A stretch of DNA of 64,000 nucleotides from Candidatus Gottesmanbacteria bacterium RIFCSPLOWO2_01_FULL_39_12b (GCA_001780955.1 MFJR01000007.1:75053-139052); one strand, 5' to 3'. Counted from the stretch's first letter, positions 35,120 through 58,549 are shown. Notes: generated by a model from the sequence alone, not told the origin. A program made the numbers and translations.

Positions 35120-35120
35120 T

Positions 35121-36041: not shown

Positions 36042-36043
36042 GT

Positions 36044-36057: not shown

Positions 36058-36083
36058 GACAGAAACGACATAGATATACAGAA

Positions 36084-37208: not shown

Positions 37209-37209
37209 T

Positions 37210-37988: not shown

Positions 37989-39875
37989 ATGAAGCATTTG
38001 TTTAAAAATTCGAAAAAATATTTTTTCGTTACATTTTTCTTATTCATTTTAAGCCTGCTGTGGATTTTTTATACATATAATGACAAATTTCAGTATCAAG
38101 TCATCAAGAATGTCACATATAACAATATTGATAGTCAAAAGGAGTATTCCGAAGCGGTTAGTTCAAACTATAAAGACGTTGATATCAGTTTTTCACTTTT
38201 CGTTGATTCGAAGGATAATATCGTTGATATCTTCCAAACGGGATCTTTAGGCACAGGTTTGATCATGAGATTTTCTCAACCAGGATTATTACAAATAATC
38301 ATCGGTTATGACAATCTTCTGGGAAATAAAGTTTATTCGCTCACTGATTCGTTTGAATACAATAAAGCGCATGCTATAAAAGTCATAGTTACCAAAGAAA
38401 AACATCTTTGGGTTGCATACGATGACATACTTGTTATCAACACATATGACAAAAATATAAACTTTGATGTCTCTAAATTCCGATTAGGACAGTTTTTCCA
38501 TGATGAAAAGATAACCAAGAGTACTATAAGTAATTTAAAATACACGTACACTCTGTTTCGTACAGTTCCAGCATACTCAATTGTTAAAAAAATAATGACT
38601 TTGATATTTTTTGTCTTAAGCTTCCAATTATTGAAAAAAAATATCAGAATTTTTTCACGCGAGGAGAGAATCAAATATACGGCATTTATACTGGTTGTTG
38701 GATTCTTGATGGCAGTTTTTTATCTCATAGGCCAAAGTATATTAGGATATACCTATCCGAAAAATACATTCCTTTTTAACCCGGGTAATATGTTTAGTGA
38801 TTTCATCGGCCCGGTAAATAATCCGGATATAATCACCTATTCATTTTTCATGGCGAGTATAAAACTTTTCTTTTATCATTTTGGTACTGAGATTAGCTTA
38901 GTGCTATTTCTTGTAGGATCGATTGCATTTCTGACACTTATAAATATCAAGGAAATTGCCGGCAAAAAATTTAACACGACTTCAATATTCTATGCTGCCG
39001 TTTTTTCATTACTTAGCTATCCTGTCCTTTTTGCTATAAATAGGGGCAATTTTGAACTATGGGTTTTTGTTTTATTGTATTTATTCTCCTATTACTTAAA
39101 TCAGAAAAGATTTATCAGAAGTGCAATATTCCTTTCCCTCGCAATATCACTGAAAATATTTCCCGCAGTTTTTCTCATAGTTATGCTATCTTGTAAGAAG
39201 TTTAAGGCCGCTATATATGCTTGTTTATTCACATTATGTACTACATTGATATCCTTAGCTGTATTTGCAAGTAGATCATCCCATAATGTAAGCAAATTAA
39301 TTTCTCAATACGTCAATACCTATACTATTGGATACGTAAAGGAATATGTTGTGGATAATAGAGGACTGGACTTTGGGCACAGTCTTTATGGACTTCTTAA
39401 ATTGCGTATTTTTAGTTTCTACAAAACGACTAACATTACCGACGTTACTCTCAAGAAAATTACAACCCTTCTCAATTCGTATACCCGGATTCAAATATCG
39501 CTTCTTGTCATACTTTCGGCGTATATTCTTTTCATAGAAAAAGAATTATGGAAAAAAATTACTCTCATGGTAATTGCGATGAATTTACTGCCTTTTGTGT
39601 CTGCCGATTATAAACTAATCAATTTCTTTATCCCTTTATATCTATTTATTAACAAAAAAGAAAAAAGCAGAATTGATTTTCTTTATATCATTCTCTTTTC
39701 TTTACTTTTAGTACCGAAAAATTACTACACAGTACTCTTGAATTTACCGGATACCAGTTTATCGGTTTTATTGAATCCTTTAATAATGATTATTCTGGCA
39801 CTGTTTATCTTATTTGAGGGATTCAAAAATATGTATGTTAGGAAGCGAAGTTCGTATGTCTCCTCCGTGATATAA
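37989..39875 (+). CDS. Polytopic membrane protein with an N-terminal ~170 aa extracytoplasmic domain after TM1. Putative GT-C-like glycosyltransferase
   Basis: 628 aa. One N-terminal TM, then a beta-rich soluble segment, then about 10 TM segments (GNFELWVFVLLY, LAISLKIFPAVFLIV). Confidence 0.45.
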   Translation: MKHLFKNSKKYFFVTFFLFILSLLWIFYTYNDKFQYQVIKNVTYNNIDSQKEYSEAVSSNYKDVDISFSLFVDSKDNIVDIFQTGSLGTGLIMRFSQPGLLQIIIGYDNLLGNKVYSLTDSFEYNKAHAIKVIVTKEKHLWVAYDDILVINTYDKNINFDVSKFRLGQFFHDEKITKSTISNLKYTYTLFRTVPAYSIVKKIMTLIFFVLSFQLLKKNIRIFSREERIKYTAFILVVGFLMAVFYLIGQSILGYTYPKNTFLFNPGNMFSDFIGPVNNPDIITYSFFMASIKLFFYHFGTEISLVLFLVGSIAFLTLINIKEIAGKKFNTTSIFYAAVFSLLSYPVLFAINRGNFELWVFVLLYLFSYYLNQKRFIRSAIFLSLAISLKIFPAVFLIVMLSCKKFKAAIYACLFTLCTTLISLAVFASRSSHNVSKLISQYVNTYTIGYVKEYVVDNRGLDFGHSLYGLLKLRIFSFYKTTNITDVTLKKITTLLNSYTRIQISLLVILSAYILFIEKELWKKITLMVIAMNLLPFVSADYKLINFFIPLYLFINKKEKSRIDFLYIILFSLLLVPKNYYTVLLNLPDTSLSVLLNPLIMIILALFILFEGFKNMYVRKRSSYVSSVI

Positions 39876-39877
39876 TA

Positions 39878-41713
39878 ATGCAATTTACTATGCAGCAGAA
39901 ACTGTCTGATTTTGTCGTCCAGTTTATTGAAGAATTAGGAGTAAAGCATATTTTCCTTGTATCAGGTGGGGGGAATATTCATCTGATTGATTCAGTTGGA
40001 AAGAGTAAAAAATTTGACTACGTTTGTAATCATCACGAGCAAGCCTCAGCTACCTCAGCTGAAAGCTATGCTAGAGTTACAGGAAATATAGGTGTATGTT
40101 TGACTACAACCGGTCCGGGAGGAACGAATGCCATAACAGGTGTTCTTGGTGCCTGGCAAGACTCAATTCCTATTTTGGTTATTTCCGGTCAAGTAAAAAG
40201 AGAACTTCTTTCCTGGAAAGTTGATAAAAATCTGCGGCAGCTGGGAGACCAGGAAGTGAATATCGTTGAGATGGTGAAATCTATCACAAAATACAGCGTT
40301 ACGGTAATGGAGGCTTCGGATATTCGTTATCATTTGGAAAAAGCGGTTTACTTGGCAAGAAGTGGCAGACCCGGTCCGGTTTGGCTGGATATACCTCTTG
40401 ATATCCAGGGATCATTTATAGACCCAGCGAGTTTGCGAGGATTTGGTCCAAAAGAATTAACTCCTTCTTATCAGACGAACAAACAAAAAATTAAGGAATT
40501 AGTAAAAGTTGTAGTTCAAAGACTAGAAAAAGCAGAAAGACCCGTTCTTTATGCAGGTCATGGTATCCGGTTAAGCGGGGCGGAAAAGGAATTTTTGGAA
40601 TTTGTAAACAAGTTAAAAATTCCGGTGCTTTTAAGCTATGCAGGCTATGATTTACTTCCAAATGAGCATCCGTATTATTTTGGCAGAGCTCATGCTTTTG
40701 GACAACGAGCGGCAAATTTTATTATCCAAAATAGCGATTTATTAATCTCAGTTGGAGCCCGTTTTGATGTTCGAACCATAGGATTTACTTACAAAGCGTT
40801 TGCGAGGGCCGCGTATAAAGTAATGGTGGATATAGATAGGGGAGAACTTGAGAAACCCATTCTATCGCCTGACTTTCCCATTAACTGTGACGCAAAAGAG
40901 TTTATCTTGGAGATGATAAACCAACTTAAACAAAAACCGTTCAAAAAAAATATTTCAGACTGGCTAAATTATGGTAGAAGTTTAAACAAAAAATATCCAG
41001 TTGTTTTACCCCAATATTGGCAGGAAAGGAAGTATGTGAATCCTTACTGTTTCATAGAAACAATAGGCAAATATCTGAAACCGGATGAGATCATTGTATT
41101 ATCGGATGGTGTAGGACCTTTAAATTGTATGTATCAAGCTTTTGTAGTAAAAAAGGGGCAGAGAATAATTTTGAATAACGGGTGTGCTCAGATGGGGTAT
41201 GGTTTACCTGCGGCAGTAGGGGCGGCTTTTGCAGCCGGTAAAAAGAAGCGAATAGTTTGTTTTGAAGGTGATGGGAGTCTGCAGTTAAATATCCACGAAC
41301 TTCAAGTGATGAAACATCATAACCTTTCCATAAAACTTTTCATTTATAGCAATGATGGTTATCTCTCAATCCGCAATACGCAAAATAATCTTTTTGAGAA
41401 GAGACATGTTGCGGTTGATTCACACAGTGGTGTAAGTTCTCCTGATTTTGTGAAAGTAGCCAAAGCTTACGGTTTTCCTGCAGAACGCATATACAATCAT
41501 AAGGATATGGAAGAAAAAATCCAGAAAGTATTAAATTTTCCAGGACCCATAGTTTGTGATATAAATGCAGTGCGTGAGCTTATGCTCAGGCCTAAACTCA
41601 TGGCCAAAAAACTTCCAAACGGACAATTTGTATCGCCTCCTCTTGAAGATATGGGTCCGTTTCTGCCCCGAGACGAATTTAAACAAAATATGCTTATACC
41701 TATATGGGAATAA
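39878..41713 (+). CDS. Thiamine-diphosphate-dependent acetolactate-synthase-like enzyme (YerE-like candidate sugar C-branching enzyme rather than IlvB)
   Basis: 611 aa. N-terminal Pyr domain GGGNIHLIDSVGKS...CLTTTGPGGTNAITGVLGAWQDSIPILVISGQV. C-terminal PP domain GDGSLQLNIHELQ. No small-subunit gene nearby. Embedded in the sugar locus. Confidence 0.75.
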   Translation: MQFTMQQKLSDFVVQFIEELGVKHIFLVSGGGNIHLIDSVGKSKKFDYVCNHHEQASATSAESYARVTGNIGVCLTTTGPGGTNAITGVLGAWQDSIPILVISGQVKRELLSWKVDKNLRQLGDQEVNIVEMVKSITKYSVTVMEASDIRYHLEKAVYLARSGRPGPVWLDIPLDIQGSFIDPASLRGFGPKELTPSYQTNKQKIKELVKVVVQRLEKAERPVLYAGHGIRLSGAEKEFLEFVNKLKIPVLLSYAGYDLLPNEHPYYFGRAHAFGQRAANFIIQNSDLLISVGARFDVRTIGFTYKAFARAAYKVMVDIDRGELEKPILSPDFPINCDAKEFILEMINQLKQKPFKKNISDWLNYGRSLNKKYPVVLPQYWQERKYVNPYCFIETIGKYLKPDEIIVLSDGVGPLNCMYQAFVVKKGQRIILNNGCAQMGYGLPAAVGAAFAAGKKKRIVCFEGDGSLQLNIHELQVMKHHNLSIKLFIYSNDGYLSIRNTQNNLFEKRHVAVDSHSGVSSPDFVKVAKAYGFPAERIYNHKDMEEKIQKVLNFPGPIVCDINAVRELMLRPKLMAKKLPNGQFVSPPLEDMGPFLPRDEFKQNMLIPIWE

Positions 41714-42630: not shown

Positions 42631-42637
42631 AATCTAT

Positions 42638-43609
42638 ATGGTTAATAAAAGTTTGTCGGTGGTCGTACCTTGCTTTAATGAGGCAAAGAATATCCTCGAG
42701 ATGTACCGAAGGTTAAAAGAGGTATTAAGGAAAAATATTTCGGGTTACGAAATAATTTTTGTAGATAACGGAAGCACCGATCAATCTAGTAAAATATTTC
42801 AATCTATTGTAAAAAAGGATCCACATGTGGGAGTTTTAGTATATTCGCGTAATTTTGGTGCTCATGGAGCTTACACAGGAGGATTGGATTACGTAAAAGG
42901 AGAAGCTGTTGTTTTTATAGACGGTGATCAGCAAGATCCACCTGAGCTTATTGAAGAAATGATTATCAAGTGGCAGGAGGGTTATGATATTGTATATGGA
43001 ATAAGAAAAAGAAGAAAAGGAAATGTTTTAAGAAAATTATTTACAATATTCTTTTATAGAATTCTTAATAAACTCTCTTATGTAAAAATACCTCTGGACG
43101 CGGGTGATTTCTCATTAATGGATCGAAAAGTAGTTGAACTTATTAAAAATATGCCCGAACATAATAAATACTTTACAGGACTTAGAGCGTGGGTTGGGTT
43201 CAGACAAATAGGCATTGAGTATAGTAGAGCAAAAAGAAATGCAGGGGTAACGAAATTCAGTTTTATTGACTATATTAAGTGGGCTCTGCATAGCATTTCA
43301 TCTTTTTCATATAAGCCTCTTGAACTAATTTCTTATCTTGCTACTTTGGTGTTTCTTGTATCCTTTTTTGGAATTTTTGTCTATATTTTAGATTTTTTCT
43401 TTTATCCTAATAATCCTCGGGGTTTCATCACGCTTATTTTGGTTACCTTATTTCTTGGTGGTGTACAGCTATTGTGTCTTAGTATTATTGGGCAATATTT
43501 GGCAAATATATTCGAAGAAGTTAAAAATAGACCTAAGTATATTGTTAAAGAATCTTTTGGAAAGACGCTTCTTTTCAAAAAGAGCGTTCATGGTCAGGAA
43601 TATTCTTAG
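42638..43609 (+). CDS. Polyprenol-phosphate glycosyltransferase, GT2 with C-terminal TM helices (GtrB/ArnC-like), copy 2
   Basis: LSVVVPCFNEAKNI...IIFVDNGSTDQS...SRNFGAHGAYTGGL...DGDQQDP and a C-terminal two-helix anchor. Confidence 0.8.
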   Translation: MVNKSLSVVVPCFNEAKNILEMYRRLKEVLRKNISGYEIIFVDNGSTDQSSKIFQSIVKKDPHVGVLVYSRNFGAHGAYTGGLDYVKGEAVVFIDGDQQDPPELIEEMIIKWQEGYDIVYGIRKRRKGNVLRKLFTIFFYRILNKLSYVKIPLDAGDFSLMDRKVVELIKNMPEHNKYFTGLRAWVGFRQIGIEYSRAKRNAGVTKFSFIDYIKWALHSISSFSYKPLELISYLATLVFLVSFFGIFVYILDFFFYPNNPRGFITLILVTLFLGGVQLLCLSIIGQYLANIFEEVKNRPKYIVKESFGKTLLFKKSVHGQEYS

Positions 43610-43664
43610 TTTCAATTTTCACTAATTATTGTAGTAATGAATCCAAGATGATATTCTAAGTAAA

Positions 43665-44654
43665 ATGGATAAAAAATTTTGGAAAAAAAGAAATGTTTTT
43701 ATAACTGGAAGCACTGGTTTACTGGGTTTCTGGATAGCAAAATATTTATCGGATTATAAGGCAAACATAATTGCTTTAATTCACAACGATATTCCTCAAC
43801 CATTTATTAAAACCTTTTCTCGCATTACTGTGGTGAAAGGTGAGGTGACAGATTATAAAAAAATTCTTTCTTTACTAAACAAACATAATATAGAAATTGT
43901 TTTTCCGCTTGCAGCACAGACCATTTCTCCAGTTGCTAATACAAATCCAATTCATACTTTTGAAACTAATATAAAAGGAGCATGGATTACTTTAGAAGCT
44001 TGCAGAAACTCAAAGACAGTCAAAAGAATTATTTTTCCTTCAACCGATAAGGTATACGGTGAAGAAGAACGTCTTCCTTATACTGAAAATTCCAGGTTAA
44101 CTGCAAAGAGGCCATATACAGTTTCCAAAAGCTGTGCTGATCTTATAGCACAGGCTTATCATGCAAGTTATAATTTGCCTATTTGCATAACACGGTTTGG
44201 CAATTTTTTTGGAGGAGGAGACTTACGTTTTGACAGGCTTGTTCCATCCGTTATTTATTCAGCATTATATAATAAACCACTTGTCGTACGAAGCGATGGG
44301 AAATATATGAGAGATTTTATATATGTAGAAGATGCAGCAAGAGCTTGTATTGAATTAACAGAAGTAATGGATAGCCTAAAAATCCTTGGAAACGCCTTCA
44401 ATTTTAGTTACGAAAAACCGTTTGAGGTTTTAGAGCTCGTTGAACTGATTCTAAAAAAAATGGAATCTCCTGTTAAACCGAGAGTATTGGGACTTACATT
44501 AAATGAGGTAAGAGATCAATATCTATCTTCCAAAAAATCAAGAACACTGCTTGGCTGGAAACCTTCTTTTACTGTTGAACAAGGAATAGAACGGACAATT
44601 AAATGGTATAGAGATTATTTTAAACATATACGCCAGGATAACGACTCAATATGA
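43665..44654 (+). CDS. CDP-glucose 4,6-dehydratase-like (RfbG/DdhB family) NDP-sugar dehydratase
   Basis: N-terminal FWKKRNVFITGSTGLLGFWIAKYL (RfbG FW.GKRVFVTGHTGFKGSWL), PLAAQTISPVANTNPIHTFETNIKG, STDKVYGE, YTVSKSCADL (RfbG SKGCAEL). Confidence 0.65.
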   Translation: MDKKFWKKRNVFITGSTGLLGFWIAKYLSDYKANIIALIHNDIPQPFIKTFSRITVVKGEVTDYKKILSLLNKHNIEIVFPLAAQTISPVANTNPIHTFETNIKGAWITLEACRNSKTVKRIIFPSTDKVYGEEERLPYTENSRLTAKRPYTVSKSCADLIAQAYHASYNLPICITRFGNFFGGGDLRFDRLVPSVIYSALYNKPLVVRSDGKYMRDFIYVEDAARACIELTEVMDSLKILGNAFNFSYEKPFEVLELVELILKKMESPVKPRVLGLTLNEVRDQYLSSKKSRTLLGWKPSFTVEQGIERTIKWYRDYFKHIRQDNDSI

Positions 44655-45319
44655 ATAAGAAAACAGTACTTATAACCGGAACTTCACGTGGAATAGGATT
44701 TGCAATTAGAAAAATTCTTGAAAAGGAAAAATACGTTATTGTTGCTCCTAATCGACAGGAATTAAATTTAGCAGATAAGCATTCTGTTGAATACTTTATT
44801 CATAAAAATAGAAATTTAAATATTGATATCCTGATCAATAACGCAGGTATTAACAATCCTGAGTGGATCCAAAATCTGGACGATAAAAATATTGAAGAAT
44901 CTATGGAGGTAAATTTAATTTCCCCTATCAAGTTGATAAAAGCATTTGTTGGGCATATGATACAAAATAAATGGGGACGGATTGTAAATATAAGTTCTAT
45001 ATTTGGTGTTGTTGCCCGGGGAAAACAAGTCATGTATGCCGCTACAAAACATGGCCTGAATGGAGTTACAAAAGCTCTTGCGTTGGAACTAGGACCGTAT
45101 AATATTCTTGTGAATTCGGTCTGTCCCGGTTTTACCAATACTGATTTGGTGAAGAGAAACTCAAAAGAAAAAAATGCAGAAATAGCTTGCGATATTCCTC
45201 TTGGTCGTTTTGCAGAGCCAGAAGAAATTGCAGAATGTGTTCTTTTCCTTATTTCAGAAAAAAATACTTACATGAACGGAGCCAATATCATGATTGACGG
45301 CGGTTTTACCTGCAGATAG
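44651..45319 (+). CDS. Classical short-chain dehydrogenase/reductase (FabG-like)
   Basis: VLITGTSRGIGFAI, NNAGI, catalytic YAATKHGLNG. Confidence 0.8.
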   Translation: MNKKTVLITGTSRGIGFAIRKILEKEKYVIVAPNRQELNLADKHSVEYFIHKNRNLNIDILINNAGINNPEWIQNLDDKNIEESMEVNLISPIKLIKAFVGHMIQNKWGRIVNISSIFGVVARGKQVMYAATKHGLNGVTKALALELGPYNILVNSVCPGFTNTDLVKRNSKEKNAEIACDIPLGRFAEPEEIAECVLFLISEKNTYMNGANIMIDGGFTCR

Positions 45320-45321
45320 TC

Positions 45322-46419
45322 TTGTCTATGGATGAATTAGTCATCAAATCAAAAATAAAGGATTTTAAAGTTAAATTCGTTGATAATACAAATTTCCTTA
45401 AGGAAATGTTTACTATTCCTCATTATGTCGTTTTCGTAGGATCAATAGTCCACGAGTTTTACAAAGAAAAAATATTCGATCGGTTTCCCAACGAAAAAAT
45501 GATCGTTATGAAGCTTGATGAGGAAAAAAAGACAATCGATACTGCCATTAAACTTTATAAAAAGCTGATGACTAAACAAGGAAAGAAAAACCTGACCATG
45601 ATCTCTTTCGGCGGCGGCATAAATCAGGATATTGCTGGATTTGTTGCTTCCACTCTTTATCGGGGTATAAATTGGATTTATGTACCTACTACGCTTCTTG
45701 CTATGGCAGACAGTTCGATAGGATTGAAAACCTCCCTCAACTTTGGCTCAATTAAAAACATGATCGGTTCGTTTTATCCCCCGACTGAAGTTTATATCGA
45801 TATAAATTTCCTAAAAACGCTAAAAAGGCAAGATTATGCCAGTGGAGTCGGAGAGATAATGAAGCTTCTTCTGATGAAAGAAGATTCATCTAAGAACTTG
45901 GCTAAAATAGTGGAAAAAGTAGAAATATTAGACTGCCAAGAAGATAAAAAAAGGATGATAGAGATCATCAAAGAAGCCATGCAGATAAAATTAAGCTATA
46001 TGGAAGGTGATGAATTTGATAAAGGGAGAAGAAATTTGCTCAATTACGGGCATGAATTCGGGCATGCGCTTGAGCCAGCCTCCGATTATCAGGTCCCACA
46101 TGGGATTGCTATAGTAATTGGTATGATTTTTGCAAACTATATTTCAGTAAAAAGAAAATGGATGAGGAGTAAACTATTTGACTACCTGAATGAGAATATA
46201 TTTATTCCGTATATGAGAAGGAGTATGATAAAATTGAAAAAAGATTTTTTTAAACCGAGTACGCTTTTAGCGAATATGAAAAAGGATAAAAAAAGAGAGT
46301 CAAGCGATCTTGTACTCATTTTGCCCAAAGAAAATTTGAATTTGTGTAAAGTCCAAGATTTAACGATACAAGAATTTGAAACAGGGCTTAGAGAAGTGCA
46401 AAAAATATTAATATTTTAA
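45322..46419 (+). CDS. 3-dehydroquinate-synthase-like sugar-phosphate cyclase family protein
   Basis: GGGINQDIAGFVASTLYRGINWIYVPTTLLAMADSSIGLKTSLNF...KNMIGSFYPPTEVYID...NYGHEFGHALE...VPHGIAIVIGM: collinear DHQS motifs. Confidence 0.7.
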   Translation: MSMDELVIKSKIKDFKVKFVDNTNFLKEMFTIPHYVVFVGSIVHEFYKEKIFDRFPNEKMIVMKLDEEKKTIDTAIKLYKKLMTKQGKKNLTMISFGGGINQDIAGFVASTLYRGINWIYVPTTLLAMADSSIGLKTSLNFGSIKNMIGSFYPPTEVYIDINFLKTLKRQDYASGVGEIMKLLLMKEDSSKNLAKIVEKVEILDCQEDKKRMIEIIKEAMQIKLSYMEGDEFDKGRRNLLNYGHEFGHALEPASDYQVPHGIAIVIGMIFANYISVKRKWMRSKLFDYLNENIFIPYMRRSMIKLKKDFFKPSTLLANMKKDKKRESSDLVLILPKENLNLCKVQDLTIQEFETGLREVQKILIF

Positions 46420-46436
46420 TAGCAAAAGGAGAAATT

Positions 46437-47231
46437 ATGAACGATTTAGAGAATAAAATGGTTGAATCGTTGATTAACTTAAGAGATAAACATGGGGTAA
46501 TAGAGGTTAAGGCAGAGTTTGAAGCAGAAGCTTCCCGCATGAATGAACTCATGCGGTTAAAAGAGGTAGCGGATAAAGCAGGCTTAGGTTTAGTATTAAA
46601 AGTAGGAGGAGCTGAAGCGATTACCGATATGTTTGAAGCACAGCATATCGGAGTGACGGGACTTATTGCTCCCATGATTGAAAGTGCTTATGCCATGAAA
46701 AAATATCTTGAAGCAATAGGGAAATATTTTCCGCAGGATCTTAGGAAGACTATTCATTTTGGAGTTAATATAGAGACGTATCAGGCGTATAAAAATCTTG
46801 AAGAAATGCTTAATTTGCAAAAGATACACTTTATTGACACAATAACCTTGGGAAGAGTAGACATGTGTGGCTCTCTCAATATCTCAAGAATGGATATTAA
46901 CTGCGACCAAATTTTTGATATTGCTCTTGATATATTTACCAAAGCAAAGAAAAAAGGCATGCGGACAACTATGGGAGGAGGAATAGCCAAAGAAGCAATT
47001 CCGTTTATAAAGAAATTAGCTTCAAAAAAACTTTTGGATAGATACGAAACAAGGAAAATTGTGTTTCCTGTTGCAAAAAGTTTAACAAATATCAAAGAAG
47101 GGATCATTGCCGCAAATTCTTTTGAACTTCTTTGGCTGGAAAATAAAAAAAATTACTATTCCCTTATTTCTACCGAGGATGATTTAAGAATAGTAATGTT
47201 GAATAGCAGAATACCCCAAAAACAGGCATGA
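46437..47231 (+). CDS. HpcH/HpaI-aldolase / CitE-like TIM-barrel protein (tentative)
   Basis: GVTGLIAPMIESAYAMKK and DTITLGRVDMCGSLNI resemble the PMVE...and GxxDL motifs of HpcH/CitE aldolases. Weak. Confidence 0.4.
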   Translation: MNDLENKMVESLINLRDKHGVIEVKAEFEAEASRMNELMRLKEVADKAGLGLVLKVGGAEAITDMFEAQHIGVTGLIAPMIESAYAMKKYLEAIGKYFPQDLRKTIHFGVNIETYQAYKNLEEMLNLQKIHFIDTITLGRVDMCGSLNISRMDINCDQIFDIALDIFTKAKKKGMRTTMGGGIAKEAIPFIKKLASKKLLDRYETRKIVFPVAKSLTNIKEGIIAANSFELLWLENKKNYYSLISTEDDLRIVMLNSRIPQKQA

Positions 47232-48205
47232 AAAAAATAGTTTCAGTTGTTATTCCAACCTATAACGAAGAGGAAAACATAGAATACGCGTATGGTGAAA
47301 TAAAGAAAATATTTCGTTTGTTACCGAAGTATGATTACGAAATTGTCTTTGTAGACAATTATAGTACTGATTATTCAAGAAAGATAATAAAAGAAATAGC
47401 AAAAAAAGACGGTAAAGTAACAGCACTTTTCATGTCAAGAAATTTTACCTCTGAATATTCCTCTCAAGCAGCAATGAAACAGGCAATAGGAGATGCGATA
47501 ACGGTTGTAGACTGTGATTTGCAGGATCCCCCAGAAGTAATCCCGCGGTTCATTGCTGAATGGGAAAAAGGATATCAGGTAATTATAGGAGTAAGAAACA
47601 AAATCAATGATACGTTTTTGATGAGCAAAGTTAGAAGACTATTTTATGTTTTTTTTAAAAAACTAGCCAATATCGATATGCCTCTAAATGCCGGAAGTTT
47701 TTGCCTTTTGGATCGAAAAGTGATGGATGTTATAAATAGTCTTCCAGAGAGAAATCGTTTCTTTCGAGGACTCCGAGCTTGGGTCGGGTTCCGAGTATCC
47801 AAAGTGTATTATGAGAGAAAAGCTCGTCACTTGGGTGAAAGTAAGAATAAATTTTCCGATTACATCAATGATTCAGAGAGAGGGTTGTTGGGATTTTCAT
47901 TTATTCCTTTGGATGTTATGACATCTTTGGGGCTTTTATTAGTATGTGCGTCATTTGTTTTTATAGTAGGATATTTGTTTATGGTCTTTGTCTATGGGAA
48001 TCCAGTAAATGCGTCTATTCCGATTTTAATCGCTATCGTCTTTTTTGGAGGTGTGCAAACGCTTGCTATCAGTATCGTTGGGAAATATATTCAAATTATT
48101 TTTGAAGAAGTGAAAGGGAGACCTACGTATATAATCGATGAGGTTATTAACGATCATCGTCAGAGTTTAACCTATAAGACTCCAAAATTGCTGTACCAAT
48201 CGTAG
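47228..48205 (+). CDS. Polyprenol-phosphate glycosyltransferase, GT2 with C-terminal TM helices (GtrB/ArnC-like), copy 3
   Basis: VSVVIPTYNEEENI...IVFVDNYSTDYS...SRNFTSEYSSQAAM...DCDLQDP and a C-terminal membrane anchor. Confidence 0.8.
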   Translation: MKKIVSVVIPTYNEEENIEYAYGEIKKIFRLLPKYDYEIVFVDNYSTDYSRKIIKEIAKKDGKVTALFMSRNFTSEYSSQAAMKQAIGDAITVVDCDLQDPPEVIPRFIAEWEKGYQVIIGVRNKINDTFLMSKVRRLFYVFFKKLANIDMPLNAGSFCLLDRKVMDVINSLPERNRFFRGLRAWVGFRVSKVYYERKARHLGESKNKFSDYINDSERGLLGFSFIPLDVMTSLGLLLVCASFVFIVGYLFMVFVYGNPVNASIPILIAIVFFGGVQTLAISIVGKYIQIIFEEVKGRPTYIIDEVINDHRQSLTYKTPKLLYQS

Positions 48206-49164
48206 ATCTGTTTTATAATACCGCATAATGTGAATTTCGGCTTCCAACCTAATTTTTTCTCTATCTTTGCATAGTCAAGAGATTGAAAAGGAATTTCATT
48301 CCGAGCAGTATTTAATATCTTATAGTCGATTTTTTTCTGTAGGGTTTTCTCAATAAGTGTTATTAAATTTAGAACCGATAAATTCTCACTTGACCCGAAA
48401 TTGAACGCTTCTCCTTTTACTTTCCCAATATTTTTAGCAAGTAGTAGATAGCCATGTATCACATCTTTTACATAAATATAATCTCGGATATAAGTGCCAT
48501 CACTCCGTATCTTAAGAGATTCTTTGGTTGCAAGAGATTTCATAATGCCCGGAATAACGCGGGAAAAATTCAGATCTCCTTCGCCGTAAACGTTTCCAAA
48601 GCGTGTTACCACAACTGGAAGTCCGTAGGTCTTGAAGTAAGAATAGCTGATAAGGTCAGCAGCAGATTTAGATACTTCGTAAGGGTGATCACCCCGTAGT
48701 GGAGTATCTTCAACATATTTCTTTTCCGTTTTTCCATAAGCTTTATCGGAAGAAGCGACTATAATACCTTTTACCTTTGGAAAAAGGCGAGCACTTTCTA
48801 ATACATTTGTAGTACCGAGAATATTTGTTTCAAGAGTTCTTTTCGGGTTAGCATAGGCTATATCGACAAGCGGTTGGGCAGCAAGATGGAAAATCAGGTC
48901 GATGTCAAACTTAGTTACTAGATCAAACACGCTCTCAAAATTACAGATGTCTATATATACCAACGTCGTTTGTTCATCCAAGTTTCGGGAATAAAAATAA
49001 GAGTGAGGATTTCTAGTCTGATAAGTACTTATTACGTGGGCTTTTTGTCTTATCAATTCCTCAATCAGGTGAGACCCGATAAATCCTGTTCCACCTGTGA
49101 CTAATATGTTTTTGTCGGTAAAGTTTATTTCCATATTTTCCAGGGCGCGTTTCCTTTTTTCCAA
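48172..49164 (-). CDS. RfbG-like NDP-sugar 4,6-dehydratase (extended SDR). Likely the CDP-glucose 4,6-dehydratase partner of the adjacent cytidylyltransferase
   Basis: ILVTGGTGFIGSHL, HLAAQPLVDIAYANPKRTLETNILGT, SSDKAYG, YEVSKSAADL. Directly downstream of ddhA in the same operon. Confidence 0.7.
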   Translation of the reverse strand: MEKRKRALENMEINFTDKNILVTGGTGFIGSHLIEELIRQKAHVISTYQTRNPHSYFYSRNLDEQTTLVYIDICNFESVFDLVTKFDIDLIFHLAAQPLVDIAYANPKRTLETNILGTTNVLESARLFPKVKGIIVASSDKAYGKTEKKYVEDTPLRGDHPYEVSKSAADLISYSYFKTYGLPVVVTRFGNVYGEGDLNFSRVIPGIMKSLATKESLKIRSDGTYIRDYIYVKDVIHGYLLLAKNIGKVKGEAFNFGSSENLSVLNLITLIEKTLQKKIDYKILNTARNEIPFQSLDYAKIEKKLGWKPKFTLCGIIKQIYDWYSNFGVL

Positions 49165-49904
49165 ATATTATTTAATTCTTCATACTCTTTATTAGTATCG
49201 ACTGCAAACCAAAACCCTTCATGTTTATATAGGGATAACTGATTTATGTTCGCTAATCTTTTTAAAGCTGCATGTTCCAACTCTCCTGGTTTCTGATAAT
49301 CGAAATATCTTTTATCAAACATCATAAATCCTCCATTAACCCAGTCTTTAAGAACTGGTTTTTCGGAAAATTGAGTGACAAGATTGTCGTTATTTGTTTT
49401 AACCGCACCGAATTTAAATTTGGGATGAATACCGGTTATGGTTCCAATAGTTTTCTGTTGGTAGTGAAATTTTACTAGCTCTCCTATATTCACATTTGCT
49501 ACTCCATCACCATAGGTAACCATAAACGACTTATCAGTTTCTGGTAGGTATTTTTGGCACCTGAGTATGCGTTCTCCAGGAAGTGTTTCCAATCCCGTGT
49601 CTACAAAAGTTATCTTGAAGTTATCACGTTTTTCAAAATCATTTAAATAATATTTTGCCTTATGATTTATAGTATTGAGGGTGAAATCAGAGGTAAATGC
49701 TTTTTGATTCAGAAAAAAATCCTTAATGTAGTTAGCTTTATATCCCAAGGCTAAGATAAATTCATTATATCCATAACTGGCATATATCTTCATGATATGC
49801 CATACAATCGGTTGATCACCGATATAAACCATCGGTTTAGGTTTGAATTCCGTTTCTTCTTTCAGCCTGGTACCGATGCCCCCGCAAAGAATTATTGTTT
49901 TCAC
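49125..49904 (-). CDS. ddhA: Glucose-1-phosphate cytidylyltransferase (RfbF/DdhA)
   Basis: MKTIILCGGIGTRLKEETEFKPKPMVYIGDQPIVWHIMKIYASYGYNEFILALGYKANYIKDFF is near-collinear with RfbF (MKAVILAGGLGTRLSEET..KPKPMVEIGGKPILWHIMK.Y). Confidence 0.85.
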   Translation of the reverse strand: MKTIILCGGIGTRLKEETEFKPKPMVYIGDQPIVWHIMKIYASYGYNEFILALGYKANYIKDFFLNQKAFTSDFTLNTINHKAKYYLNDFEKRDNFKITFVDTGLETLPGERILRCQKYLPETDKSFMVTYGDGVANVNIGELVKFHYQQKTIGTITGIHPKFKFGAVKTNNDNLVTQFSEKPVLKDWVNGGFMMFDKRYFDYQKPGELEHAALKRLANINQLSLYKHEGFWFAVDTNKEYEELNNIWKKGNAPWKIWK

Positions 49905-55169: not shown

Positions 55170-55958
55170 ATGCGTCAATTTTCCTTATTTATGCTACAGA
55201 GACAACTAAGGTTAAAAATACTCAAGATTGCGAACCTATCCAAATCCAGTCATTGTCATATAGGATCTTGTTTATCTTGTATTGATATTTTAATCCAAAC
55301 ATTAATTTATGAGATGGGGGAACGGGATAAATTTGTTCTTTCTAAAGGACATGCCTCTCTTGCTTTATACGTCGTTTTAAATTATTTGGGAAAAATTTCA
55401 GATAAAACCCTATCAACATATTTTCAAAACAATACTAAACTAGGAATTCACACACCTTCTACTTTACAAAGAGATATCCCGTTAGGTACTGGAAGTTTAG
55501 GCCACGGACTTTCTTTTTCTTGTGGTCTAGCCTTAGGTAATCTTATGGCAAATAAACAAAATCCTAGGAACGTTTATTGCTTAATTTCTGATGGGGAATG
55601 TAACGAAGGGGCAATTTGGGAAGCAGCACTCTTTGCCACCGCGCACAAATTATATAATCTAATAATCATAGTTGATAAAAACGGGTTACAGGCGTTTGGT
55701 AAAACTAAGGATATTTTAGGCGACGGAGCGGCAATTGAGAAATGGAAGTCATTCGGGTTCAATACTTATGAGTGCGACGGTCATAATTTAAATGAGTTAA
55801 AACGGGTTTTTAACGAAATAAAAATAAATGTCGGTTCCAGACCGAATATTGTCATCTGTAAAACAGTAAGAGGAAAAGGGTTAAAAGTTATTGAGAATAA
55901 AGTAGTATCAAATTACGTATCTGTTGATGAGAAATTATTGAATTCTATTTATTTATGA
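55170..55958 (+). CDS. Transketolase, N-terminal (ThDP-binding) subunit
   Basis: SKGHASLALYVVLNYLG, GTGSLGHGLSFSCGLALG, CLISDGECNEGAIWEAALFA. Confidence 0.85.
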   Translation: MRQFSLFMLQRQLRLKILKIANLSKSSHCHIGSCLSCIDILIQTLIYEMGERDKFVLSKGHASLALYVVLNYLGKISDKTLSTYFQNNTKLGIHTPSTLQRDIPLGTGSLGHGLSFSCGLALGNLMANKQNPRNVYCLISDGECNEGAIWEAALFATAHKLYNLIIIVDKNGLQAFGKTKDILGDGAAIEKWKSFGFNTYECDGHNLNELKRVFNEIKINVGSRPNIVICKTVRGKGLKVIENKVVSNYVSVDEKLLNSIYL

Positions 55959-55965
55959 TTAAAGA

Positions 55966-56877
55966 ATGAAACAACAACTTGCAAGATCATTAAAAAGACT
56001 AGCGATGAAAGACAGGAAAATAATCTTTATAACCGGAGATTTAGGATTTAACGCTTTTGAAGAGTTACAAAAAACGATGCAGGACAGATTCATTAACGCC
56101 GGTGTAGCCGAACATAACATGATTACGCTGGCCGCAGGTTTGGCTTATATGGGTTTTAAACCCTGGATATACAGTATTGCACCATTTATCACAATTAAAG
56201 TATTAGAGGAGATACGTAATGATGTTAGTTTGACAAAGTCAGACATAAAAATTATAGGACTAGGAGCTGGATTTGATTATGGAATAGCCGGACCAACCCA
56301 TCATGCCATACAAGATGTTGGCGCAGTTCTTTCACTGCCTAATATGAAGGTATACGCCCCGGGATTTATTGAAGATGTCGATACGGTTATTGATAAGATA
56401 TACCGTTATAAAGGACCAGTTTACTTAAGATTATCGAAGGAAGAAAAAGCAAAACTAAAAGTTCCCCAATATGCACCTCTTAGAAGGATTAATAGAGGAG
56501 CGAAAGTTACCGTCGTGGCATTAGGTAATATTATTCAGGAAGTAATTAAGGCCTCCTTTCTTCTCAAAGATAATTTAAGAAGCATTGATATTTGGATAGT
56601 TAGTGAATTGCCACTAAAATTTGAACAGAAATTGATCGACTCGATCAAGAGGACGAGAAAATTAATCGTGGTGGAAGAACATGTTTCAACAGGGGGACTG
56701 GGAGCATATTTATCCTCATACCTTATGAAAAATTACCCTATGGTAGTTAAACAGTTTACTCACAAGTGTGTACAGGGATATAAAAGCAGAAATTACGGAG
56801 ATAGACAGTTTCATTTGCGAGAGAATGATTTGGATGCTGAAAGTATTTTTTCAACTTTGAAAACATTCACTTCTTAA
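55966..56877 (+). CDS. Transketolase, C-terminal (pyrimidine-binding) subunit
   Basis: FINAGVAEHNMITLAAGLAYMGFKPWIYSIAPFIT, PTHHAIQDVGAVLSLPNMKVYAP. Confidence 0.85.
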   Translation: MKQQLARSLKRLAMKDRKIIFITGDLGFNAFEELQKTMQDRFINAGVAEHNMITLAAGLAYMGFKPWIYSIAPFITIKVLEEIRNDVSLTKSDIKIIGLGAGFDYGIAGPTHHAIQDVGAVLSLPNMKVYAPGFIEDVDTVIDKIYRYKGPVYLRLSKEEKAKLKVPQYAPLRRINRGAKVTVVALGNIIQEVIKASFLLKDNLRSIDIWIVSELPLKFEQKLIDSIKRTRKLIVVEEHVSTGGLGAYLSSYLMKNYPMVVKQFTHKCVQGYKSRNYGDRQFHLRENDLDAESIFSTLKTFTS

Positions 56878-56883
56878 ATCTAT

Positions 56884-57843
56884 TTGTCAAAAGATAAATC
56901 TTTTATCAATAAACTTAATGGTCCGATTGCAGTCTTTGGCGCAGGTGGATTTATTGGTTTCAATTTACTTCAAAAATTATTGGAAAGACGGCAGGATGTT
57001 TTAGGGTTGTCGCATGACCCAAAAAACTCATGGAGAATTAAGGAATCACCCAAGATACAAAGATATATCCAAAGATGTGATGTCTTAAATATCTTAGAGT
57101 TGAAAACAATACTTAATAAATATAAACCTCAAACAATTTTTAATTTAGCCGCTTATGGGGCGTATTCAGATCAGCAGAATATAGAATATATTTATTCGAC
57201 TAATTTCAACTCGACAATCTCTATAATAGAGATTCTTAAAAGAAATGGGTTTAAGGCTTATATTCATGCCGGTTCCCAATCGGAATATGGGTTAAATTCG
57301 TCTGGACCTTTCGAAGATAACGATCTTATACCGAACAGTCATTATGCGGTAGCTAAGGTAGCATCTCATTATTTGATCAAGTATTACGGATTAGTAGAAA
57401 AATTACCGGTTATTCATCTAAGATTTTATTCAGTCTACGGACCGTGGGAAGAGAAAGGAAGATTAATTAAGACAATCATCGAAAAAGCAAAAAATAAAAA
57501 ATTACCTGATTTTGTTGATCCAAATGTAACCCACGATTTTATTTATATTGACGATGTCATTGAGGCCATAATTATCTCAGCTGTTAAAGTAAACAAAAAA
57601 ATATTTGGAGAAGTATTTAACGTTGCCACAGGCAAAAAAACTTCAATTAAAGAAATAGCGTTTCTTGCTAAAAAAATATTTAGATTAACCGTTCAACCTA
57701 AGTTTAATAGAATGCAAAACAGGCTATGGGATATGGCTGATTGGTACGGAAACAGCAATAAAGCGTTAAAAGTATTAGGGTGGCAGGCAAAGGTTAGCCT
57801 GACGGAAGGATTGATAAAAACCTACCAGCACAAATATGGCTAA
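56884..57843 (+). CDS. NAD-dependent NDP-sugar epimerase/dehydratase
   Basis: IAVFGAGGFIGFNLLQKLL, YAVAKVASH. Confidence 0.7.
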   Translation: MSKDKSFINKLNGPIAVFGAGGFIGFNLLQKLLERRQDVLGLSHDPKNSWRIKESPKIQRYIQRCDVLNILELKTILNKYKPQTIFNLAAYGAYSDQQNIEYIYSTNFNSTISIIEILKRNGFKAYIHAGSQSEYGLNSSGPFEDNDLIPNSHYAVAKVASHYLIKYYGLVEKLPVIHLRFYSVYGPWEEKGRLIKTIIEKAKNKKLPDFVDPNVTHDFIYIDDVIEAIIISAVKVNKKIFGEVFNVATGKKTSIKEIAFLAKKIFRLTVQPKFNRMQNRLWDMADWYGNSNKALKVLGWQAKVSLTEGLIKTYQHKYG

Positions 57844-58549
57844 GAATGTTATTTTGTCTGTTGTTTTTCCTGTTTTAAATCAGGCAGATCATATTAACAG
57901 GGTAATAAGTTCTTATCATAAATCTTTATCAAAGTTAAATATCAGATTTGAACTGATTACAGTAGTTAATGGTTCTTCCGATAACAGTATCGAAATCTGT
58001 AATAGCTTGGCTAAAAAAATAGACAATCTTCGAGTCTATGAAATAAAAGAAAAAGGCTATGGTCTTGGAATCCTTTACGGTATGGATAAAGCTGAGGGAA
58101 AATACCTCTGTTATTTAAATTCAGCAAGAGTATACGAAGATGAGCTGGTAAAATGTGTCAGAATTTTCCTCACCAAACCCGGGCTTTTATTGCAGGCGAT
58201 CAGGGTAAAAAGAGACGTTTATTACCGAAGACTAAGTTCAGTCATTTACAATTTCTTCTGTTGTTTAATATTTGGAATTCGTTCTCCCGATATTAACGGC
58301 AGCCCTAAAATATTTAGCAGAGAAAACTATCATTTACTTAATTTAAAATTTACTGACAGTATGATCGATTTAGAATTATTAGAGAAAGCTAAAGAGCAAG
58401 GACTGAAAGTGCTTGAAGTGCCTATTTACAAAAATAAAAGACACGGTGGCATTTCCACATCGAACTATAACACGATATTAAGACTGATAAGAGAAGTTAT
58501 ACGCTACTTTATCCTGACAAGATTATCTAAGAGAGCTTATAGCCTATAA
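57836..58549 (+). CDS. GT2 family glycosyltransferase
   Basis: ILSVVFPVLNQADHINRVISS...ELITVVNGSSDNS. 237 aa. Confidence 0.6.
   Translation: MAKNVILSVVFPVLNQADHINRVISSYHKSLSKLNIRFELITVVNGSSDNSIEICNSLAKKIDNLRVYEIKEKGYGLGILYGMDKAEGKYLCYLNSARVYEDELVKCVRIFLTKPGLLLQAIRVKRDVYYRRLSSVIYNFFCCLIFGIRSPDINGSPKIFSRENYHLLNLKFTDSMIDLELLEKAKEQGLKVLEVPIYKNKRHGGISTSNYNTILRLIREVIRYFILTRLSKRAYSL

Follow-up and report, generated by a model that had tools for sequence, protein, structure and literature searches.

The three consecutive genes for a FabG-like SDR, a dehydroquinate synthase (DHQS)-like protein and a divergent aldolase in the 64-kb stretch of DNA analysed here (hereafter the window) are proposed to be a module supplying the side-chain precursor in an operon for 'acyl-branched sugars' of the caryophyllose type, in which the DHQS paralogue would be non-cyclising. 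This reading is assigned a probability of about 0.55. The DHQS look-alike would most likely remove a terminal phosphate and leave a methyl group, with no carbon ring being built.

The features of the window are listed in Table 1. The trio ORFs have exactly the coordinates given in a preliminary description of this DNA, which had also recognised their glycosyltransferase surroundings; the trio is flanked by two GT2 genes. The DHQS-like gene starts with TTG at 45322 or with ATG at 45328, lies 2 nt beyond the SDR stop codon and is translationally coupled to the SDR gene, and the aldolase ATG is preceded by the Shine-Dalgarno sequence AAGGAG. The 2-nt junction and the AAGGAG sequence support a single operon extending from 37989 to 48205.

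Table 1. Sugar-related genes of the window, with supporting scores
Coordinates	Strand	Product	Evidence
27246..28508	-	RfbH/E1 CDP-6-deoxy-4-hexulose 3-dehydrase	628 bits, exceeding the cut-off of 423
37989..39875	+	Membrane glycosyltransferase of the GT-C type, family GT87; opens the operon	
39878..41713	+	YerE-like ThDP-dependent carboligase, canonical GDG motif	best solved relative 8rph, 480 bits
41704..42630	+	Extended SDR adjoining the ThDP gene, candidate YerF-like side-chain ketoreductase	
42638..43609	+	GT2, ArnC/GtrB/PgfS type (polyprenyl-phosphate sugar synthase)	
43665..44654	+	CDP-glucose 4,6-dehydratase-like extended SDR	182 bits, cut-off of 278 not reached
44651..45319	+	FabG-like classical SDR (ketoreductase), 222 aa	adh_short_C2 E 2.7e-45; top PDB matches FabG enzymes
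45322..46419	+	DHQS-like protein, probably of the TIGR04425 clade, 365 aa	PF01761 E 1.5e-36; PF24621 E 9.8e-27
46437..47231	+	Putative divergent HpcH/HpaI-fold class II (pyruvate) aldolase, 264 aa	Pfam HpcH_HpaI 28.2 bits
47228..48205	+	Second GT2, ArnC/GtrB/PgfS type	
48172..49164	-	CDP-glucose 4,6-dehydratase-like protein	205 bits (cut-off 278)
49125..49904	-	Glucose-1-phosphate cytidylyltransferase, RfbF-like	265.5 bits (cut-off 300)
55170..56877	+	Split transketolase (ORFs 55170-55958 and 55966-56877)	Transketolase_N E 4.6e-26; Transket_pyr E 2.8e-24
56884..57843		Extended SDR near the split transketolase	
57836..58549		GT2 near the split transketolase	

The DHQS motif set reported earlier is present in the translation of 45322-46419, and the protein belongs to the DHQS/sugar-phosphate cyclase superfamily as judged by both domains, the glycine-rich NAD motif, three metal ligands and the fold; bacterial AroB proteins are the top structural matches (TM 0.82-0.85) of its AlphaFold model (pLDDT 90). 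It scores 260.7 bits against the aroB profile TIGR01357, below the curated cut-off of 305, and 377.4 bits against TIGR04425 ('AroB-related putative sugar phosphate phospholyase'; curated cut-off 400), is 26-28% identical to AroBs and is monophyletic with Effusibacillus and Paenibacillus proteins carrying NCBI's TIGR04425 name. PDB sequence scores are 120-148 bits for DHQS, 87 for ValA and 76 for DDGS. The phylogenetic placement suggested in the preliminary description was carried out, and in the NJ tree the TIGR04425-clade family forms a monophyletic clade of its own, separate from AroB and on the AroB/DOIS side. The profile score, the separate clade and the sugar-operon context thus bear out the earlier view of a superfamily member distinct from housekeeping AroB, and the grouping with glycerol or glycerol-1-phosphate dehydrogenases that had been named as contradicting it was not seen (30.9 bits, cut-off 413).

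The active site was compared with those of eight references drawn from AroB, DOIS, the SH7P (sedoheptulose-7-phosphate) cyclases and a DHQS-family protein of Streptomyces, the SH7P cyclases being three annotated plasmid-encoded proteins and not crystallised enzymes; the An-DHQS numbers of the aligned positions are presumed from the positions of the motifs. The metal ligands E178, H244 and H260 (An-DHQS E194, H271 and H287) are invariant in the family, and the AroB-type DAHP-binding residues R130, D146, K152, N162, K197, K250, R264, N268, H275 and K356 (An-DHQS) are found in all 77 members. The family residues at positions 250, 264, 268, 275 and 356 are thus Lys, Arg, Asn, His and Lys; in the annotated SH7P cyclases they are replaced by Met, Glu/Ala/Lys, Asp, Pro and a residue other than Lys. 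We take K250 and R264 to be the binders of the substrate carboxylate, and their invariant equivalents, missing in the annotated SH7P cyclases, argue for a DAHP-like acid as the substrate. An identity as 2-deoxy-scyllo-inosose synthase was also considered and rejected, the family having R at 264 and N at 268 where an annotated Sodalis DOIS has Ala and Glu. The residue directly after the zinc-ligand His is Cys, Glu or Asp in 74 of the 77 members (Glu245 in the protein studied here) and Thr in all eight references, as in the rest of the superfamily. Further family-specific changes relative to AroB include GGK to G(S/L/A)K and an Asn that invariably follows the equivalent of Arg264.

The aldolase-like protein narrowly passes the Pfam HpcH_HpaI cut-off of 25. 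Its structural model (pLDDT 92.8) is matched by Foldseek to HpaI/HpcH and SbnG, which are class II pyruvate aldolases (E 5e-9 to 1e-6; TM about 0.6), and the predicted TIM-barrel fold and the location beside a YerE-like gene are features shared with the HpaI/HpcH class and MMAR_2331 of M. marinum. It differs from the solved aldolases in its identity of only 12-16%, and no significant sequence match was found for it in the PDB; the invariant E113 and D142 are, by sequence only, candidate metal ligands. ErwI is a functional analogue with a different fold. The YerE-like carboligase typical of acyl-branched CDP-sugar clusters is represented by the ThDP enzyme, whose score against 8rph (taken as JanthE from its CDG motif) compares with 266 bits against PpYerE (5ahk) and at most 269 against acetolactate synthases. 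Of the other members expected in such a cluster, the locus has a predicted aldolase fold and a neighbouring extended SDR, putatively the supplier of a gamma-hydroxy alpha-keto acid and a YerF-like reductase.

Conservation of the gene neighbourhood was analysed by our own ORF clustering over 80 loci carrying the DHQS-like gene, from Patescibacteria, Chloroflexota, Geobacteraceae, Bacteroidales, Melainabacteria, Nitrosomonadaceae, Firmicutes, Spirochaetes and others; 43 of these (the full-flank loci) are covered for 6 kb or more on each side. The FabG-like SDR is the most conserved partner, lying directly upstream of the DHQS-like gene in 74 of the 80 loci. Within 6 kb in the full-flank loci were found the SDR (41), an aldolase-type gene (40), the ThDP enzyme (39), an extended SDR (37), a GT2 (30) and a DegT-family gene (21), the cluster representative of which scores as RfbH. 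The SDR and an aldolase are thus conserved partners of the cyclase, in line with the co-occurrence proposed earlier as a check. The cassette comprises genes for glucose-1-phosphate cytidylyltransferase, CDP-glucose 4,6-dehydratase and RfbH, for a YerE-like ThDP carboligase with an extended SDR, for a pyruvate/PEP aldolase, for the FabG-like SDR with the DHQS-like protein, and for a polyprenyl-phosphate GT2, GtrA and a GT-C. Across phyla the aldolase slot is occupied by HpcH-like, NeuB/PseI-like or BphI/HMGL-like genes, and the occurrence of three unrelated families forming C-C bonds with pyruvate or PEP in one slot indicates non-orthologous replacement at the same step. Along with the cassette, some loci carry genes for FSA/TalC-like proteins, archaeal-type PEP carboxylase or, in rare cases, a split transketolase, consistent with a supply of erythrose-4-phosphate and activated pyruvate. 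In locus L076 the SDR-cyclase pair occurs alone, between ruvB and queC. Among cultured bacteria, the cassette is carried by Effusibacillus consociatus, Paenibacillus sp., Geobacter sp. AOG1 and Sulfuriferula multivorans.

The window contains the RfbF, RfbG and RfbH gene set for CDP-4-keto-3,6-dideoxyglucose, the RfbF- and RfbG-like members scoring below their cut-offs. The cytidylyltransferase, the CDP-glucose 4,6-dehydratase-like enzymes and RfbH are together predicted to yield a CDP-4-keto-(3,)6-deoxyhexose, RfbH being the putative supplier of the 3,6-dideoxy-4-keto acceptor. No E3-type reductase was identified in the 64-kb window, nor any aro gene among its annotated ORFs. The split transketolase, earlier regarded as belonging to the same island and as a possible source of the cyclase substrate, is genuine but belongs to another transcription unit, at a distance of 8 kb, and the presence of such a gene within 6 kb in only three of the 80 loci argues against a dedicated partnership. 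It may supply erythrose-4-phosphate or, with the neighbouring extended SDR and GT2, constitute a second sugar-branching module.

The conserved cassette agrees with the scheme that has been published for sugars with acyl branches (PMC9306805; PMC12247030). In this scheme a gamma-hydroxy alpha-keto acid, the product of a pyruvate aldolase, is decarboxylated by a YerE-like enzyme and added to C4 of a CDP-keto sugar, a reductase completing the branch, and the 'unifying scheme' encompasses yersiniose, erwiniose, caryophyllose and gastriose (Steitz et al. 2022). The logic common to that scheme and the cassette is the addition of an aldolase-made alpha-keto acid to a CDP-4-keto-deoxyhexose; no mention of a DHQS-family gene or of a FabG-like SDR was found in the published accounts of it that were consulted. 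The donor of YerE is pyruvate, which is rejected by ErwE, from a cluster with its own aldolase (PMC9306805), and accepted among other donors by JanthE (PMC12247030).

Only for M. marinum are the cassette and the structure of the glycan both known. Its MMAR_2327-MMAR_2336 region has in common with the window a cytidylyltransferase, a CDP-glucose 4,6-dehydratase, RfbH, a YerE-like ThDP enzyme, an aldolase/citrate-lyase-family protein, a DHQS-family protein, a GT2 and a GT87. MMAR_2329 of this LOS locus is annotated as "3-dehydroquinate synthase family protein", aroB being a separate gene (MMAR_2177), and MMAR_2327, adjoining the caryophyllose genes, belongs to the same GT87 family as the first gene of the operon described here (supplement of PMC12395582); MMAR_2329 and MMAR_2330 are assigned to the TIGR04425 clade and to the SDRs by annotation text and gene order only. 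Mutants in MMAR_2331 to MMAR_2333 lack caryophyllose (PMC9306805), a 3,6,10-trideoxy sugar whose acyclic side chain originates from a C7 acid and has a terminal CH3. The window differs in its host, an uncultured member of the Patescibacteria (Microgenomates-type), in gene order, in having two GT2 genes, in the location of RfbH 12 kb away and in that no E3-type reductase was seen. The cyclitol or carbasugar product favoured in the preliminary description is disfavoured by this acyclic sugar, and its alternative, an unusual higher-carbon sugar, comes close to the caryophyllose-type reading.

In the proposed pathway, the aldolase would condense pyruvate, in some lineages perhaps formed from oxaloacetate, with erythrose-4-phosphate to a DAHP-like 3-deoxy-heptulosonate 7-phosphate; a NeuB-type enzyme would take PEP instead. 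The DHQS paralogue would perform the first steps of DHQS, namely NAD+ oxidation beside the phosphate, beta-elimination of the phosphate and re-reduction, and the FabG-like SDR would reduce the resulting 6-keto group before aldol ring closure. The product, 3,7-dideoxyheptulosonate, would be a methyl-terminated alpha-keto acid of seven carbons and serve the ThDP enzyme as donor for a 1,3,4,5-tetrahydroxyhexyl (caryophyllose-type) branch; this acid is isomeric with quinate (C7H12O6). In a variant, the DHQS-like enzyme and the SDR would turn erythrose-4-phosphate into a 4-deoxytetrose before the aldol step. In either order the 'cyclase' would be a phosphate-eliminating deoxygenase forming no carbocycle. 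After its GT2-catalysed transfer to polyprenyl phosphate, the finished CDP-sugar would be flipped, and the GT-C enzyme would transfer it on the outer side of the membrane. We know of no DHQS homologue that stops before ring closure. The enol-pyranose intermediate of DHQS cyclises spontaneously, so interception by the SDR or protonation at C7 would have to be fast. Further, the side chain of caryophyllose is presumably D-ribo, going by the systematic name of the sugar, and DAHP D-arabino; the caryophyllose acid would therefore be a DAHP 4-epimer, despite the unaltered binding residues.

True cyclisation is a much less likely alternative, in which a DAHP-like acid would yield a dehydroquinate/quinate-type carbocycle, or the ThDP adduct would be cyclised on the sugar, giving the glycan a branched sugar that bears a carbocycle, similar to caryose or bradyrhizose. 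The conserved full catalytic set of a cyclising DHQS, the AroB-like fold, the NCBI family name 'phospholyase (cyclizing)' and the existence of carbocyclic sugars in bacterial O-antigens point in this direction, caryose being an example of a carbocyclic sugar in bacteria. Closing the ring would, however, use up the C2 keto group required by the ThDP enzyme, and the conserved cassette has no other enzyme able to attach a free cyclitol acid; a bulky CDP-sugar substrate is disfavoured by the invariant carboxylate-binding equivalents, and in M. marinum a cassette with a DHQS-family gene leads to an acyclic sugar. Somewhat less probable still is the existence of two independent modules, the ThDP enzyme producing a yersiniose-like C2-branched sugar from pyruvate and the trio a dehydroquinate/quinate-like metabolite used elsewhere. 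The use of pyruvate by YerE and JanthE and the isolated SDR-cyclase pair of L076 would agree with such a division, which is difficult to reconcile with the presence of the ThDP enzyme and an aldolase-type gene near the cyclase in nearly all full-flank loci of many phyla, and with the rejection of pyruvate by ErwE. To our knowledge, moreover, no aromatic amino-acid biosynthesis, and hence no aromatic pathway using dehydroquinate, is known in Patescibacteria.

The two remaining explanations are very improbable. An EEVS/DDGS/EVS-type enzyme, converting sedoheptulose-7-phosphate supplied by transketolase into a C7 cyclitol, would share with the present protein its superfamily, as would DOIS, and the first chemical steps, and transaldolase-like or transketolase genes do occur in some loci; the substrate-pocket residues differ, all 77 members having the AroB residue at the five distinguishing positions, and the PDB scores, the place in the tree and the rarity of nearby transketolase also speak against it. 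Least probable is a housekeeping shikimate-pathway AroB. With AroB the protein has in common the fold, the NAD-binding motif, the zinc ligands and the equivalents of the phosphate- and carboxylate-binding positions, the active site being identical, whereas the sub-threshold profile score, the low identity, the separate clade, the constant sugar-operon context, the lack of identified aro genes among the annotated window ORFs and the separate aroB of M. marinum set it apart, as does a proposed product other than dehydroquinate.

A pathway for long-branched caryophyllose-type cell-surface sugars is widespread and has already been outlined. If the DHQS paralogue closes the ring in this lineage, which is considered rather unlikely, the cell surface would display a sugar whose branch is a C-linked, quinate-like cyclitol; this would be a new class of bacterial sugars with a carbocycle, uniting shikimate-type and nucleotide-sugar chemistry. 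If, in the less exotic case that the caryophyllose-type reading suggests with about even odds, the non-cyclising paralogue acts as a phosphate-eliminating deoxygenase, it would represent new enzymology.

The preliminary description placed three open reading frames side by side, and these, along with the DHQS-superfamily motifs that it quoted for the middle gene, are present at the coordinates listed in the table: a FabG-like SDR, a dehydroquinate synthase (DHQS)-like gene and an aldolase-like gene. The genes of this trio abut, with 2 nt between the SDR stop and the start of the DHQS-like gene and an AAGGAG upstream of the aldolase ATG, and form part of a same-strand run spanning 37989-48205 in the window, the GC content of which is about 33%. 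Scans for promoters and terminators gave signals no better than chance. The AlphaFold model of the DHQS-like protein (pLDDT 90) aligns most closely with AroB structures from bacteria (TM 0.82-0.85), with DOIS, ValA and DDGS ranking below these at 17, 24 and 43, respectively. For the aldolase-like protein, a PDB sequence search returned no significant match, and HpaI/HpcH and SbnG, which are class II pyruvate aldolases, are the structural matches of its predicted model (pLDDT 92.8); weak matches to glycerol dehydrogenase (about 21 bits) were dismissed as spurious.

Features of the window discussed in the text, with their positions and annotation
Feature	Position	Strand	Annotation
Seven tandem paralogous polytopic membrane proteins	9699-24625	-	603-752 aa, about 9-12 hydrophobic segments each
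RfbH	27246-28508		628 bits (cut-off 423)
Two neighbouring paralogue-sized ORFs	29292-31221		320 aa; weak beta-1,2-mannobiose phosphorylase matches, 49 and 46 bits (cut-off 450)
Putative amino-deoxy sugar module	31780-37959		3-hydroxyacyl-CoA dehydrogenase-like gene, thiolase (569 bits to PRK06289), third ArnC-type GT2, DesI-like sugar 4-aminotransferase, methyltransferase
GT87 GT-C	37989-39875
ThDP enzyme	39878-41713		480 bits to PDB 8rph; acetolactate synthases about 250-269 bits
Extended SDR adjoining ThDP enzyme	41704-42630
RfbG-like gene	43665-44654
SDR	44651-45319	+	Classical FabG-like ketoreductase; Pfam adh_short_C2, E 2.7e-45; best solved relatives are FabG enzymes
DHQS-like gene	45322-46419	+	Both DHQS domains, E 1.5e-36 and 9.8e-27 (Pfam)
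Aldolase-like gene	46437-47231	+	Marginal HpcH_HpaI by sequence, 28.2 bits (cut-off 25)
RfbG-like gene	48172-49164
RfbF-like gene	49125-49904
Split transketolase	55170-56877
Extended SDR	56884-57843
Small GT2	57836-58549
Membrane protein	58554-60116	Opposite to 55170-58549	520 aa

The top curated family for the DHQS-like protein is TIGR04425, [quoted passage not shown] (377 bits, cut-off 400); the aroB model scores 261 bits against a cut-off of 305 and the glycerol-1-P dehydrogenase model negligibly. Among PDB sequences, DHQSs score 120-148 bits, DOIS 116, ValA (EEVS) 87 and DDGS 76. Its homologues, with identities up to 72%, belong mostly to Microgenomates-type Patescibacteria (Roizman-, Levy- and Gottesmanbacteria), so the host of the window is most probably a bacterium of that type too. 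The family as considered here, the DHQS-like proteins of the TIGR04425 clade, is large: two narrow peptide patterns matched 270 GTDB species (one genome per species), and more than 4,600 proteins were found at E <= 1e-60. A search of a plasmid collection yielded no member and only AroB-type genes of at most 35% identity.

Seventy-seven members from many phyla were aligned with eight references taken from annotated plasmid genes, namely AroB of E. coli, S. aureus and Bacteroides, a Streptomyces DHQS-family protein, a Sodalis DOIS and three "sedoheptulose 7-phosphate cyclases". All the DHQS catalytic and binding positions are invariant across the 77 members and carry the same residues as AroB. 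At the equivalents of An-DHQS K250, R264, N268, H275 and K356 (numbers that we take from the motif positions), the three annotated sedoheptulose-7-P cyclases have Met, Glu/Ala/Lys, Asp, Pro and a residue other than Lys, respectively, and the annotated DOIS has Ala and Glu at the R264 and N268 equivalents. The residues equivalent to K250 and R264 presumably bind the substrate carboxylate. Since the AroB residues are invariant in the family and differ in the sedoheptulose-7-P cyclases and DOIS, the pocket, judged from its sequence, fits a DAHP-like substrate (a 3-deoxy-2-ulosonate bearing a carboxylate and, at its end, a phosphate) and not sedoheptulose-7-P or glucose-6-P. In a neighbour-joining tree the family is monophyletic (mean internal identity 47%) and lies on the AroB/DOIS side; its identity to the AroB-type proteins is 26-29% and to the sedoheptulose-7-P cyclases 21-25%.

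The position following the zinc-ligand His sets the family apart: all eight references have Thr there, whereas 74 of the 77 members have Cys (45 members), Glu (21) or Asp (8); in the window it is Glu245. Glu tracks the Patescibacteria clade and Asp occurs mostly in loci with a NeuB-type aldolase. In the model, the site lies on helix 244-253, which also bears the zinc-ligand His and the His275 equivalent. Other family-specific changes are GGK to G(S/L/A)K and an invariant Asn following the Arg264 equivalent.

The genomic context of the family was examined in 80 retained loci, in all of which ORFs were called and clustered and the cluster representatives annotated; neighbours were counted within 6 kb of the DHQS-like gene in the 43 loci flanked on each side by 6 kb or more of sequence. 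A FabG-like SDR is present in 41 of these 43 loci (immediately upstream in 74 of all 80) and an aldolase-type gene in 40, so that the co-occurrence of the trio, raised in the preliminary description, is indeed conserved. An acetolactate-synthase-like ThDP enzyme is found in 39, an extended SDR in 37, a GT2 in 30, a DegT-family gene in 21 (one representative being RfbH at 667 bits) and a glucose-1-P cytidylyltransferase-like gene in 19; GtrA-like and GT-C genes are common in the cassette loci. The aldolase slot is occupied by HpcH-like proteins in 32 loci, NeuB/PseI-like in four, BphI/HMGL-like in three and an unassignable protein in one; cluster 31, a possible fourth occupant, had no match in Pfam, NCBIfam or PDB. 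The three named families are unrelated and all couple pyruvate or PEP to a carbonyl. Occasional additions are FSA/TalC-like genes (four loci), an archaeal-type PEP carboxylase (three) and a split transketolase (one). Cultured bacteria that carry the cassette include Effusibacillus consociatus CCUG 53762, Paenibacillus sp. CGMCC 1.60098, Geobacter sp. AOG1 and Sulfuriferula multivorans TTN.

Some loci depart from the common arrangement. In two Levybacteria-type loci (L001, 7582-11870, and L006), an archaeal-type PEP carboxylase (PF14010, E 6e-128) and an FSA/TalC-like aldolase lie directly upstream of the DHQS-like and HpcH-like genes, and this adjacency suggests oxaloacetate and a sugar-phosphate-derived aldehyde as feedstocks. 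In a Rickettsiales MAG (L076, 8877-10597) the SDR and the DHQS-like gene form a lone pair flanked by ruvB and queC; ThDP, aldolase and sugar genes are all missing from the surrounding 6-9 kb or so, up to the contig ends, and the pair may have a stand-alone function in some lineages. In an Anaerolineaceae MAG (L047, 7093-11068), a split transketolase directly precedes the DHQS-like gene and the SDR and aldolase are absent, as if the cassette had been rearranged or were decaying. The TPP_enzyme_C remnant at the start of its DHQS-like ORF was rejected as a gene fusion and ascribed to ORF calling, as was the N-terminal extension of a 554-aa protein in another locus (L040), which has no SDR domain.

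The ThDP enzyme of the window is closest to PDB 8rph, which is JanthE, a characterised YerE-like carboligase (identity read from the aligned CDG motif). The DHQS paralogue and its SDR almost universally accompany the YerE-like enzyme and the aldolase. Steitz et al. [quoted passage not shown] The window, by sequence similarity, holds counterparts of all the parts of this scheme, with two ArnC/GtrB-type GT2s among its cassette genes, and the locus is a Patescibacteria instance of a caryophyllose-like, YerE-type cluster for acyl-branched sugars.

The archetypal caryophyllose cluster of M. marinum shares this cassette, the DHQS-family gene included (MMAR_2329, by annotation and gene order), as follows from the gene list in the supplementary table of a 2025 study (PMC12395582): GT87 (MMAR_2327), ThDP-binding protein (MMAR_2332), GT2 (MMAR_2333), Glc-1-P cytidylyltransferase (MMAR_2334), RfbH (MMAR_2335) and CDP-Glc 4,6-dehydratase (MMAR_2336), with the housekeeping aroB a distinct gene, MMAR_2177. 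Caryophyllose is missing in mutants of MMAR_2331 to MMAR_2333 (PMC9306805), which accumulate LOS-II*. A profile search with the non-Patescibacteria members gave no Mycobacterium, Rhodopseudomonas or Spirochaeta aurantia homologue among the 120 proteins listed. The C7 2-keto-3-deoxy acid, with its terminal methyl, from which the scheme derives the side chain of caryophyllose is drawn there from pyruvate and a C4 aldehyde of unstated origin (PMC9306805), and the source of the methyl-terminated polyhydroxylated C7 keto acid is not given for the long-branched sugars. The accessible literature on the scheme mentions neither a DHQS-family gene nor a FabG-like SDR in the same clusters and does not discuss the DHQS-family gene of the caryophyllose cluster; searches found nothing relevant on the TIGR04425/AroB-related family or tying YerE, caryophyllose or marinum lipooligosaccharide to dehydroquinate synthase, and a paper on bradyrhizose held no relevant gene content.

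We propose, at about even odds, that the DHQS paralogue acts in this operon as a phosphate-eliminating deoxygenase. A 2-keto-3-deoxy acid of seven carbons that ends in a phosphate belongs to the DAHP type, exactly the kind of acid that the conserved pocket would suit. Oxidation adjacent to the phosphate, followed by loss of the phosphate through beta-elimination and by re-reduction, would yield a 6-keto-7-deoxy acid, and the coupled SDR would reduce the 6-ketone to 3,7-dideoxyheptulosonate, an isomer of quinate (both C7H12O6), which would keep the alpha-keto group for the ThDP enzyme and bear the terminal CH3 found in caryophyllose. The proposal would account for the tight coupling of the two genes, for the interchangeable pyruvate/PEP aldolases, for the absence of a phosphatase and for the occasional FSA/transaldolase or transketolase, which could supply erythrose-4-P. 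HpcH-type enzymes can use oxaloacetate as activated pyruvate, which would explain the occasional PEP carboxylase. More speculatively, the Cys/Glu/Asp after the zinc-ligand His might donate a proton to C7 and so disfavour ring closure. In a variant with the same net result, the DHQS-like enzyme and SDR would deoxygenate erythrose-4-P ahead of the aldol step; this leaves the invariant carboxylate-binding residues unexplained.

Among the other explanations, true ring closure by the DHQS-like enzyme is the least improbable, though unlikely, as it fits the logic of the cassette and the M. marinum product more poorly than deoxygenation does. Two independent modules, a ThDP-dependent branch and an aldolase/DHQS-like/SDR set, are somewhat more doubtful still, given how nearly obligate their linkage is from phylum to phylum. 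The preliminary description rightly saw no ordinary AroB in the DHQS-like protein, and a housekeeping AroB is the least credible reading of all in the light of the aroB model score, the separate clade and the sugar-gene neighbours. Its own suggestion of a sedoheptulose-7-P cyclase of the EEVS/DDGS/EVS type is disfavoured by the pocket residues, the PDB scores, the tree position and the neighbour counts, and a cyclitol so derived is hardly more credible. A cyclitol product in general is unlikely, as M. marinum with the same cassette makes caryophyllose, 3,6,10-trideoxy-4-C-(1-hydroxyethyl)-decose, which has no carbocycle.

The split transketolase, earlier suggested as a possible source of substrate for the cyclase, is rarely linked to it across the loci, and in the window is the first gene of a separate unit that also has an extended SDR and a small GT2. 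It could provide more erythrose-4-P; alternatively, by analogy with the split-gene transketolases proposed for miharamycin and amipurimycin, so far predicted only in Streptomyces, it could branch a second keto sugar, and the unit may be a second branching module of that type. The adjoining membrane protein had no Pfam match. Elsewhere in the window, the seven tandem membrane proteins fall into two subfamilies (30-46% identity inside each, with weaker, partial matches between them); the four scanned had no Pfam match, and the array probably encodes GT-C-like glycosyltransferases or polymerases. The thiolase-containing group resembles a set of genes for making an N-acylated amino-deoxy sugar, a metabolism unusual for a Patescibacteria genome.

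What is new here is a putative role, proposed from gene content and residues, for a very widespread DHQS paralogue and the SDR that accompanies it. If true, an enzyme of the DHQS type that deoxygenates and does not form a carbocycle would be a new outcome for this chemistry. Patescibacteria, with their very small genomes, devote a long operon to a predicted C12-type branched sugar delivered via polyprenyl phosphate and GT-C enzymes. In mycobacteria and plant pathogens, long-branched surface sugars play a part in contact with the host, and the enzymes that make them are sought as biocatalysts.
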